From positions 192,001-256,000 of the forward strand of contig CAVSQW010000006.1 of NCBI GenBank assembly GCA_963730185.1: 64,000 nucleotides of DNA. The letters are read 5' to 3'. The notes under the pieces are model-generated. The model was given only the letters and a program-made list of their open reading frames with translations. It searched no databases and was not told where the DNA came from. The position numbers were made by a program, and so were the translations under genes. Shown here piece by piece: positions 5,109 to 10,387 of the stretch. This stretch comes from an uncultured Gemmatimonadales bacterium. GTDB taxonomy: Bacteria; Gemmatimonadota; Gemmatimonadetes; Gemmatimonadales; GWC2-71-9. Numbering within the stretch: position 1 is the first letter of the stretch; every line of letters begins with the position of its first letter.

Positions 5109-5498
5109 ATGAGGACTTTGGATCGGGCATTTGGCTGGCTCCTGGTGGTTAACGGCTGCGTTCATGCGGTCGGTGCCTGGAATGCCAATCATGCGAATCC
5201 CAGCGTTCTCTTGTGGGCGTTAACAGGTTCCCTCGCGGCGGTTCTCATCGCCGCAATCAACCTGCTGCGCGCCGAGCGTCCCCATGATCGCCCGCTTGCC
5301 TGGCTCGGTCTTGCGGGGTCTCTCGCGTGGCTCGCCGTCGCTCTCAGCGTCGGGAAGCTCATCGGCAACGTCCTCGACATCCGGGTGGTCAGTAACGCGT
5401 TGAACGCCGTGGTGCTGGCCGCGATGAGCATCCGATCGCTAAGGAGTGGTTCCCGCGTGCTGCGGTCGGGGCCAGACGCGCCGCGGCCGCCGCGTTAG
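5109..5498 (+). CDS. Small membrane protein (about 4 TM), cassette-borne
   Basis: Hydrophobic ORF with GAGG RBS; C-terminus extends into a degenerate attC. Confidence 0.7.
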   Translation: MRTLDRAFGWLLVVNGCVHAVGAWNANHANPSVLLWALTGSLAAVLIAAINLLRAERPHDRPLAWLGLAGSLAWLAVALSVGKLIGNVLDIRVVSNALNAVVLAAMSIRSLRSGSRVLRSGPDAPRPPR

Positions 5499-5559
5499 AT
5501 AGGTTTGGGGATGGCGGCGGCCTCACCTGGCCTCGCGGCAGAAGCGCAGGGCGTTAGGC
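5445..5559 (+). repeat. Degenerate attC (family A)
   Basis: Right arm GCGGCGGCCTCACCTGGCCTCGCGGCAGAAGCGCAGGGCGTT is identical to that of the 6052 site; R'' lost; left boundary approximate. Confidence 0.75.
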
Positions 5560-5575
5560 GGCCGCGCCTTCACCG

Positions 5576-6043
5576 GTGATAAGGATGATTCGCTCCAGCA
5601 TCGACATCAATCGTTCGCCCCATGATGCATTCGCATACGTCGAGGAACTAGACCGACACGGCGACTGGCAGGATGCGATCATCACCGCCCGGAAGGAACC
5701 GTCCGGTCCAACTCGGCTCGCCACCCACAACATCGAAAGGCGACGCATCCCCGGTGGGCCGAGGGAAAGCGAATCCGAGATGTGCGAATACGATCCGCCG
5801 CGCCGGATTGCGGCGAAGGGCGTGAACGGGCCAGTACGCGCGATCGTCGTGATCTCCATCGAACCGCTCGACGGCGGTTCCCGCTCGCGATTCATCATGG
5901 AACTAACTCTGGTGGGGCGTGGTATCGGTAGACTGTTTGCGCTGTTCGCGCGGCGCTCGGCTCGTCAGCAAGTCCCGCGCGATCAACGTCGGTTGAAAGG
6001 TCTCTTGGAGAGTGGTCGAGATTCGGCCTCTGCCTCCGAATGA
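5576..6043 (+). CDS. SRPBCC (polyketide cyclase/dehydrase) family protein
   Basis: Motifs SIDINRSPHDAFAYV, EYDPPRRI, DQRRLKGLLE. Confidence 0.85.
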   Translation: MIRMIRSSIDINRSPHDAFAYVEELDRHGDWQDAIITARKEPSGPTRLATHNIERRRIPGGPRESESEMCEYDPPRRIAAKGVNGPVRAIVVISIEPLDGGSRSRFIMELTLVGRGIGRLFALFARRSARQQVPRDQRRLKGLLESGRDSASASE

Positions 6044-6051
6044 CATCGGCC

Positions 6052-6166
6052 ACCTAACCCCGCGCTTGCTGCCGTCGAGGCCACGGCGGTTCGGCCGCCG
6101 CGATGTACTTTCCATCTAAGGACTGCGGCGGCCTCACCTGGCCTCGCGGCAGAAGCGCAGGGCGTT
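6052..6166 (+). repeat. attC site (family A) interrupted in its core by an IS
   Basis: ACCTAAC...GTT; the core is completed by AGAC at 7106-7109 on the far side of the IS. Confidence 0.85.
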
Positions 6167-6269
6167 GATATGACTGGGCTGCTGTCAAGGACCGTGATCT
6201 TCACGCGCGCATGGACTCATCCTCTCGCTCAGCGGGTTGGAGACGAGGGGACGACGGGGCCGGAGCTGG

Positions 6270-6420
6270 TTCGCCGATCATCCTGCTGATATACGCCGGT
6301 CAGCGGATCCGCTCGCCGGAGCGGCACGAAGTGGATGCGTCGGGAGCGACCTCGGTCTAGGCACTCGGGTTCCGTTGGGCTGCCACGTACCGGATAACGT
6401 ACGACGAGGGTTCCCCCAGA
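6270..6420 (-). ncRNA. Putative bridge/seek RNA of the IS1111 element (ends approximate)
   Basis: Non-coding region downstream of tnp; two stem-closed internal loops carry short matches to the attC core and the IS circle junction. Confidence 0.6.
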
Positions 6421-6449
6421 TCGTGCCCCGGACACCCGCCGTCACGACG

Positions 6450-6986
6450 TCAGACCACCACCGGGCCGGGCTCGAGCCAGGCGAGATGCCGCGGGCCCCA
6501 GTGGGGGCCTTCGCGATAGATCAGGCCCCGGCGGGTCAGGAACTTGAGCAGGTAGTGCTTCGACTGGAGGAGCTCGCGTTGGAGCGTCTCCGGGCACCGC
6601 ACCAGATCGCGGACCTGTTCTTCGGCGGCGCTCGGTACCCGCACGGCGGTCAGCTCGCCGGCGCGGAAGAGCCGGACCAGCTGGGTCGCGTCGTACCGGT
6701 CGTGCTTGCGGTGGATGCCGGGTTTGGTGGGGATCAACGACGGGGCGATCACGGTGCAGGCGTGGCCCCAGCTCGTCAGGGCCCGATACAGCACGAACCC
6801 GGCCCCGCTGGCCTCGTAGCACACGTGGAGCGCCCCCTGGGTCGCCAGCCGGGCGAGGTAGCGTTGGAGGACCTTCGGCTCGTTCGGCAGGCGGTTCACC
6901 CTCGACGGGACCGCATCGCCGGTCGGCAGGACGGCCACGGTGATCGATGCCTGGTGTACATCCATCCCGACGTAGATATTAGACAT
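6450..6986 (-). pseudogene. IS110 transposase, N-terminal DEDD/RuvC domain only
   Basis: Motifs VGMDVHQ, VCYEA, KHDRYDA; stops at 178 aa without the C-terminal domain. Confidence 0.85.
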
Positions 6987-7132
6987 GGGCTGGTTCCTCC
7001 GACTGGCTGCGACGGTGGGTCGCGTCGCATGTGGCTCTGGCGACTTCGGGGATCCCGAAGGAGCTAACCCACGGCGCTTCGGGGGCCAGCCCAGTCATAA
7101 CTTCTAGACAGCACTCAATCAGTGGTCAGGCC

Positions 7133-7882
7133 GTGGATCAGGGTTCGTTCTACGATGACATCGCCGGGTACTACGACCTGATCTATGCGGATTGGGATGA
7201 AAGCATGCGGCGCCACGGTGCGGCTATTTCTACCATGCTTGGCAGTGCCCCGCCCCACGCGCGCATCCTTGATGTCTCGGCGGGAATCGGAACTCAGGCG
7301 CTGCCGCTCGCCTCAATGGGCTACGACGTCGTCGCCAGAGACTTGAGTCCCGGCGCTATCCGCAGGCTTCAACGGGAGGCACAGGACCGAGGGCTCTCAA
7401 TCGACGCCGCGCCCTCTGATATGCGCGACGTTGCTCGTTCGGTCGACGGACTTTTCGACGCCGTGATTTCGTTCGACAATTCGGTTCCCCATCTGCTGAC
7501 GGATGCTGACATCACCGCGACCCTTCGGGGCCTCAGCGAAGTGTTGGTTCCCGGTGGAGTCATTCTCCTGTCCGTCCGGGACTATGATGGGGTGGACCGA
7601 TCCCCGACTTCGATCCATCGGTATGGGGAGCGAACTCGTCAGGGCTCCCGGTACAGGATGAGCCAGGAGTGGGAGTGGTATGACCCTTCGCACTACCGGA
7701 CGACCATGATCATCGAACGGGAGCAGGAGAAGCGGTGGAGGGAAGTCGTCCGTACCGTGGCCGCGTACCACGCCATTTCGATCCCGCGGCTCCTTGAACT
7801 CATGGAGGGCGTCGGACTTGATGCGCGGCGCGTCGAAGAACCGCCGTTCTTCCAACCCGTCTTGCGTGGACGTGCTGCCTAA
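7133..7882 (+). CDS. Class I SAM-dependent methyltransferase
   Basis: ILDVSAGIGTQ motif I and NSVPHL; GTG start lies after the IS end; the TAA stop lies in attC R''. Confidence 0.85.
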   Translation: MDQGSFYDDIAGYYDLIYADWDESMRRHGAAISTMLGSAPPHARILDVSAGIGTQALPLASMGYDVVARDLSPGAIRRLQREAQDRGLSIDAAPSDMRDVARSVDGLFDAVISFDNSVPHLLTDADITATLRGLSEVLVPGGVILLSVRDYDGVDRSPTSIHRYGERTRQGSRYRMSQEWEWYDPSHYRTTMIIEREQEKRWREVVRTVAAYHAISIPRLLELMEGVGLDARRVEEPPFFQPVLRGRAA

Positions 7883-7993
7883 CGATGGTTTGCTGCTGAC
7901 AGGGTAGGCTGCGAGGTCCGGCAGCACTCGCCTGGCGGCTCGCGCCGCGGGTCGGCATCATGCTCCTGCAGCAGAAACCCAGCGTCGTTGGGC
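7877..7993 (+). repeat. attC site
   Basis: GCCTAAC...GTTGGGC; arms GGTTTGCTGC/GCAGCAGAAACC. Confidence 0.85.
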
Positions 7994-10314: not shown

Positions 10315-10387
10315 CTGGGGCGGCAGGCCTCGAACCTGCAACCTCCCGGTTAACAGCCGGGCGCTCTGCCAATTGAGCTACACCCCA
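10315..10387 (-). tRNA. tRNA-Asn(GTT)
   Basis: TGGGGTGTAGCTCAATTGGCAGAGCGCCCGGCTGTTAACCGGGAGGTTGCAGGTTCGAGGCCTGCCGCCCCAG folds as a cloverleaf; no encoded CCA. Confidence 0.95.

Follow-up and report, generated by a model that had tools for sequence, protein, structure and literature searches.

The window, that is, the whole stretch of 64,000 nucleotides analysed here, contains an array of integron cassettes in which one attC site is interrupted by an IS110-family element, and this locus raises the question of what directs such an element into the R′ core of attC. The element occupies positions 6167-7105 (939 bp, minus strand) and is internally deleted; its full-length counterpart on contig C14 measures 1524 bp. 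It is bounded by the junctions GCGTT|GATATGACTGGGCTG at 6166|6167 and CAGCCCAGTCATAACTTCT|AGAC at 7105|7106, and its excision in silico gives GTTAGAC, that is a GTT|AGAC core, in agreement with the sequence-only reading, all of whose coordinates were re-checked. The IS1111-type ends that it described are likewise present: a perfect 12-bp sub-terminal inverted repeat lies at 6170-6181 and 7087-7098, 3 and 7 nt from the element ends. In the orientation of the element (minus strand), the left end consists of the 7-nt extension AGAAGTT (7099-7105; left donor plus CT core) and the left 12-bp repeat (7087-7098), and the right end of the right repeat with its 3-nt extension (6167-6181). Sub-terminal repeats of 11-13 bp with 7-nt and 3-nt extensions are the layout by which IS1111-type ends are defined in PMC11187229. 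The distribution of non-coding DNA, ∼280 nt downstream of tnp against ∼120 nt upstream, is also of the IS1111 type. Close to the right end, TTGACA (6183-6188, minus strand) is a predicted -35 box of a circle-junction promoter; of 59 elements, 54 carry a TTG[A/C]C motif whose first base lies 20-23 nt from the right end.

The coding state of the window copy qualifies its description as an IS1111-type element, which holds for the end layout and the downstream non-coding region but not for a complete transposase. A 585-bp internal deletion has shortened tnp to 178 aa (6450-6986, minus strand), leaving only the DEDD/RuvC domain (PF01548, E 2e-12; the D, E and KxDxxD motifs are present in the translation) and removing the C-terminal domain with the catalytic serine. 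The latter domain is frameshifted in the C14 copy and intact in relatives L007, L072 and L073, and the NF033542 score of the window protein (97.5 bits) falls under the cut-off of 140 that L007 (216.8) exceeds. The window copy is thus non-autonomous and would need a transposase supplied in trans. As to the IS1111 family in the strict sense, the transposase comparison covered IS4321 (28% identity over 246 aa) and ISSso6/ISEc45 (38-40%); the closest named records are Gemmatimonadota assemblies (74-80%).

The interrupted attC (6052-6166, plus strand, from fold and orientation analysis) comprises R″ ACCTAAC at 6052-6058, an imperfect hairpin and the G|TT of R′ at 6164-6166, and 20 of the 22 scored arm bases of its bottom strand are paired. 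It belongs to the upstream cassette gene, which encodes a protein with an SRPBCC/polyketide-cyclase fold (5576-6043, plus strand; ORF list and domain search). The displaced remainder of R′, AGAC (7106-7109, plus strand), begins the downstream cassette, whose SAM methyltransferase gene (7133-7882, plus strand, ORF and domain evidence; start codon inferred) has its own attC core at 7987. The methyltransferase frame remains open into the left end of the element (7031-7132), which produces a longer ORF call and is probably incidental. Independent support for the element ends came from an empty site: record 12 of metagenome contig set X3 matches 6062-6166 with 4 differences and then continues AGAT..., so that the same attC is found there uninterrupted, with divergence exactly at 6166. 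One other copy is present in the genome (C14:7839-9362, 1524 bp, 85-91% identity; transposase 92% identical to that of the window), with a frameshift beside the serine motif. It is inserted at GTT|AGAC of an attC from another family, and both copies in this genome therefore occupy this position. The assembly is 82% complete, and an active copy may therefore be missing from it.

The array begins at a frameshifted intI (G000:C6:184326-185276) ∼7 kb before the window. Integrons of inverted type, with intI co-directional with the cassettes, were observed in G000:C6, G000:C13, G371:C2, G287:C168, G255:C1 and G016:C4; the intI of G000:C13 is an open frame and that of C6 is frameshifted. A remnant site lies at 5494-5560 of the window, with an attC core at 5494, a 3′-half attC 59 nt further on that is 90% like 2723-2774, and a second core at 5553. 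An Rfam scan of the window returned a tRNA at 10315-10387 as its sole match; this tRNA and a tRNA-like fragment before intI (G000:C6 ∼183960-184035, by eye) flank the array, which is possibly an integrated island. The first extra-helical base of the attC bottom strand is usually G; in the attC folds of this genome it is, by eye, C. The L′-R′ spacer of the attCs on C6, C13 and C14 is 1-4 nt longer than the R″-L″ spacer.

The non-coding region downstream of tnp is, judging from alignment and covariation, very likely a bridge RNA (predicted approximate extent 6250-6445, minus strand), made up of an outer stem, a target-binding loop and a donor-binding loop. The stems CCTCG/CGAGG and CATCC/GGATG and the guides CGTTA, GCCTA, ACTTC and ATATCAG that had been picked out from the sequence are all present. 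Guide alignment assigns the matched part of the left target guide to 6395-6399 (CGTTA, with TT at the core columns), the right target guide and handshake bases AC to 6355-6362, the left donor guide ACTTC to 6328-6332, and the right donor guide ATATCAG with handshake bases CA to 6284-6292 (all minus strand). One assignment required extension: GCCTA is present, but the true right target guide is longer, GCCTAG (6357-6362), and is followed by the two handshake bases. The core spelled by the guides, CGTTAGGC, is indeed the commonest in the array: the cassette strand of C6 has 5 occurrences of it, above every other CGTTA core. The actual insertion site, CGTTAGAC, has one mismatch to the window guide; the guide of the C14 copy, GTCTAG, matches AGAC. 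A single-sequence fold of the window non-coding region was no more stable than its shuffles (z +0.87), so that fold energy is uninformative and the structure rests on covariation. No circle joint of the element was seen in four contig sets. We hold with considerable confidence that this is a transposase-truncated IS110-family copy whose downstream non-coding region is a likely bridge RNA that would guide an intact transposase to the attC R′ core, GTT|RRRY.

Relatives were collected with element ends called by the 7/3 rule and a left end required to begin with AG. Under this rule 20 loci had no ends, of which 5 were rescued by hand, and 3 further loci lacked an RNA anchor. Both ends and an anchored RNA were available for 55 elements, which formed the working set. 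Of these, 14 were set aside, 9 because their guide set was a repeat, 3 for altered or tandem junctions and 2 for short flanks, and 41 guide sets remained. Pattern scans yielded 2 metagenome loci and 2 viral loci; the viral pair gave no transposase match and was left out, and no ISKpn4-type motif was found in the viral contigs. Non-autonomous copies recur among the relatives; L028, for instance, is a 515-bp miniature at an attC core with intact ends and RNA and only 36 tnp codons.

GTT directly precedes the junction in 24 of the 55 relatives, 23 of which have CGTT. Relatives with a CGTTA guide insert at GTT| sites and those with other guides insert elsewhere, the opposite of homologues scattered over unrelated sites with unchanged loops, the outcome that was to count against guidance. 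Of the 24 AAC-flanked sites whose flanks were long enough (L077 added, L072 omitted), 13 passed a strict attC fold. The corresponding figure for random CGTTA[GT] sites was 12 of 250, several of them in other attC arrays. Another 8 sites are attC-like by homology and L105 by eye; L042 and L047 obtained no attC assignment. A relaxed attC score was dropped because controls scored equally high. Orientation by ORF context was unreliable; bulge and spacer asymmetry worked, and placed 14 of 15 sites in R′, as for 12 of 12 control attCs. The exception is L050, which lies in R″ in the opposite orientation. Of 16 genomes carrying GTT-type elements, 12 had an IntI over the cut-off, against 4 of 16 others, a difference confounded by family. 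In the sister lineage of L051 and L056 (G239, G267), whose left guide is CATAACTG, the insertion point lies 1 nt beyond R″ (GCATAACT|G), a third attC position in this branch; the attC of L056 is of the same family as that of the R′ targeter L085 in the same genome.

How much of this preference the guide itself provides was assessed from its matches elsewhere. Perfect matches to CGTTAGRC number 243 in the genome and only 20 of these are attC-like; once coding sequence is removed with a crude mask, the figure is 13 of 75. Something beyond the guide, either selection or recognition of the hairpin, must therefore contribute. Accordingly, the guide might give a short core match only, with the attC preference coming mainly from protein-RNA recognition of the folded or extruded hairpin, a real possibility though not the one that we favour. 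It would account for the attC location of both own-genome copies and of at least 13 of 24 family sites, and ISKpn4 and ISPa11 likewise occur at folded structures according to PMC11187229. Loss of in-gene insertions could, however, give the same bias. The targets also include attCs that are decayed or reduced to half (L088, L028, L065), as well as two sites without resemblance to attC. Moreover, within one array insertion tracks the guide-matched core: in G356, all 4 insertions fall within the 9 GTTAG cores among ∼39 sites (hypergeometric 0.0015). Hairpin recognition would supplement guidance by the bridge RNA and not replace it.

RNA-guided attC targeting as such is known, since seekRNAs of ISKpn4 and ISPst6 have been purified and that of ISPa25 has been predicted (PMC11187229). 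An ordinary member of this described IS1111-attC group (ISKpn4, ISPst6, ISPa21, ISPa25) would share what the window element indeed shares with it, namely an attC target, antisense orientation, 7/3-nt ends with sub-terminal repeats and a guide RNA in the non-coding region downstream of tnp (PMC11187229). Position and transposase nevertheless make such membership very improbable. IS1111-attC elements are described as inserting near the 5′ end of attC (PMC3001079). The one on pME-1a is found at CTAAC AATTCA|TTCAAGC, 6 nt past R″, which agrees with the tabulated ISKpn4 site 6 nt after R″ (PMC13604230); its non-coding region resembles by eye that of ISKpn4, and ISPa21 is the name given to the pME-1a-type element in an identical integron (PMC7232449). 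Insertion at that point splits the hairpin, whereas the window element lies inside R′ and keeps hairpin and GTT together. Thus, the comparison of insertion positions that the sequence-only reading called for confirmed the attC target and the antisense orientation, but placed the element at the opposite end of attC. Its transposase also belongs to a different branch. Identity between the pME-1a transposase and L007 is 27% (E 2e-9), and the window protein was absent from the listed matches of the former. A joint clade was rejected (p-AU 0.004) with one representative, L119, on long branches under LG+G4; the tree was a quick LG+G4 tree of 51 rows in which the window row was 47% filled.

The closest named transposases are those of ISSso6 and ISEc45 (38-40%), and our searches found no attC targeting by this branch. 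ISEc45 also resembles the window element in its sub-terminal repeat and in carrying its non-coding region downstream. ISCARN28 is listed beside ISSso6/ISEc45 in source data of PMC11187229, and a bridge RNA is predicted for it in Extended Data Fig. 10 of PMC11208160. When all R′ targeters were constrained to one clade, the main clade plus L064, L085 and L086 was not rejected (AU test, p 0.69), and one clade was rejected with L014 added (p 2e-37) or L044 excluded (p 0.03). L014 is a distant relative (38% identity, Binatia record) with guide CGTTA at CGTT| of an attC R′; because it cannot be joined to the main clade, R′ targeting has arisen at least twice in this branch. None of the papers covered by the literature search, which reached few subscription papers, describes an IS110-family element inserted in the R′ core; ISfinder, which lay beyond it, may contain an entry. 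A separate transposase branch and the R′ position appear to be new for RNA-guided attC targeting. Group IIC-attC introns likewise colonise the attC bottom strand, but they are retroelements and insert near the attC 5′ end (PMC3001079). With IS621 and ISCro4/IS622 (PMC11208160, PMC11208158; PDB 8wt6, 9t56) the family shares a two-loop RNA, left and right guides, a core dinucleotide and a handshake; IS621, as described there, differs from the window element in its upstream RNA, short repeats and a CT core common to target and donor. Only the C-terminal motif of IS621-type proteins could be aligned with the window-element family (E 1e-7 to 8e-5).

Evidence that the loops act as guides comes from their covariation with targets and donor ends. 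Across the 41 distinct guide sets, the match rate was 0.80 between the left target guide and target positions 3-7 (shuffled 0.33) and 0.73 between the right target guide and positions 10-13 (shuffled 0.46); in the 24 non-GTT rows alone the target-guide signal was 0.82 against 0.29. Scored against the junction predicted from the element ends, the left donor guide matched at 0.61 against 0.43 and the right donor guide at 0.99 against 0.89. Each right guide is followed by two bases that match positions 6-7 of the other partner, as in the IS621 handshake: 0.78 against 0.49 for the target loop and, more weakly, 0.46 against 0.30 for the donor loop, which gave no signal within the GTT rows. Slid controls gave 0.24, 0.31 and 0.29, the 0.31 control being marginal (p = 0.03); since the elements are related, permutation p-values overstate the significance. 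The match has its limits in that right-guide positions 12-13 agree in 46% only, the window copy being mismatched at 12, and the left donor guide reaches the first core base only. Compensatory changes support 16 of 33 pairs of the RNA stems in the alignment of 29 non-coding regions from which the structure was itself derived, three pairs of the donor-loop closing stem being included in this count; stem cells were paired in 94.6%, against 29-47% for slid partners. L044, sister to L042, switched guide and target together inside the attC clade. That the loop matches arose by chance and the protein alone does the targeting is hardly credible: the matches are 5-7 nt long and the single-sequence fold equals its shuffles, but over many different targets the guide columns shift along with the target, at a protein identity of 55-65%, and donor guides follow altered right ends (ATC, AGC, ACG, ATT). 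The proposal of an RNA-programmed recombinase aimed at the integron crossover is thus borne out as to guide-target covariation, with the qualifications that the window copy is non-autonomous and that an 8-nt guide match alone is insufficient for the attC preference.

Two further observations concern the targets of relatives. L044 and L082, from different subclades, share the target motif TGTAGTG, which may be the end of another IS. In G016, the left junction of the attC-targeting L050 is precisely where a related element, L091 (guide TTTTCTA), has inserted, so that L091 piggy-backs on the end of L050.

The core dinucleotides set the clade of the window element apart from most relatives. The target core is CT in 24 of 24 non-GTT rows, whereas the 17 GTT rows without exception carry TT in the target and in a left guide that reads CGTTA, with AG retained in the right guide. 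In these same 17 rows the TT of the target faces a donor CT, a donor core that is partly given by construction because the end-finder required a left end starting with AG; one contig shows CC as the core. A core dinucleotide common to target and donor that all four guides read, as in bridge RNAs, is thus absent, and the mismatch of a TT target with a CT donor core would be new here. For IS621, the right target guide is reported to pair with the incoming donor core after exchange (PMC11208158); by analogy, AG may have been kept in the right guide because it would pair with the incoming donor CT.

On this basis we propose the following course of events. The element would excise as a circle with the junction ACTTCT|GATAT, which would set TTGACA before a weak -10 box, so that tnp and the RNA are expressed. 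The donor loop would read both strands of the junction and the target loop CGTTA and AG(G/A)C on opposite strands, binding being deduced from the observed covariation. As in IS621, the top strands would be cut 3′ of the core, TT in the target and CT in the donor. The AG of the right guide would wobble against the TT target but be fully complementary to the CT of the incoming donor, and the handshake bases would pair after exchange.

The outcome places the element antisense to the cassettes and 2 nt past the IntI crossover, since IntI cuts between G and TT of R′, and AAC and GTT are described as the only conserved triplets (PMC2727003). Insertion leaves AAC and GTT in place, but the outer R-box pairing, 2-4 of 4 before insertion, falls to 0-1 of 4. 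The upstream attC retains GTT and the element formally becomes the 5′ part of the next cassette. Tentatively, the guide may have been tuned to land at this point so that attC stays recombinable and the element becomes a passenger on integron recombination, an idea that we think unlikely rather than likely; the integrase would then excise, copy and re-insert the next cassette with the element at its 5′ end. A 1128-bp cassette of G356 follows three different attCs; in two of these cases its 5′ end is occupied by an identical element, and the identity extends no further than the cassette's own core. All four element copies in G356 are identical, however, and for two insertions made independently among the 9 guide-matched cores the probability is ∼0.40. 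The loss of outer R-box pairing likewise speaks against the passenger idea. The significance first attached to travel of the IS with the cassette was lost once sites were limited to these cores, and the pattern fits co-movement and also independent insertion.

Experimental evidence on the effect of an IS in attC on the array is described as limited (PMC11616780), and the R′ position makes it testable whether such an IS freezes the cassette array or rides it. Genome-engineering work selects matching cores (bioRxiv 10.1101/2025.05.14.653916), and the relatives described here suggest that recombination between unlike cores (TT and CT) may be routine. They would also constitute a natural reprogramming series with handshake bases and IS1111-type ends. 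Finally, RNA-guided elements would have converged on attC from a second transposase branch, and their target would be the one motif common to all cassettes and not a family-specific arm.
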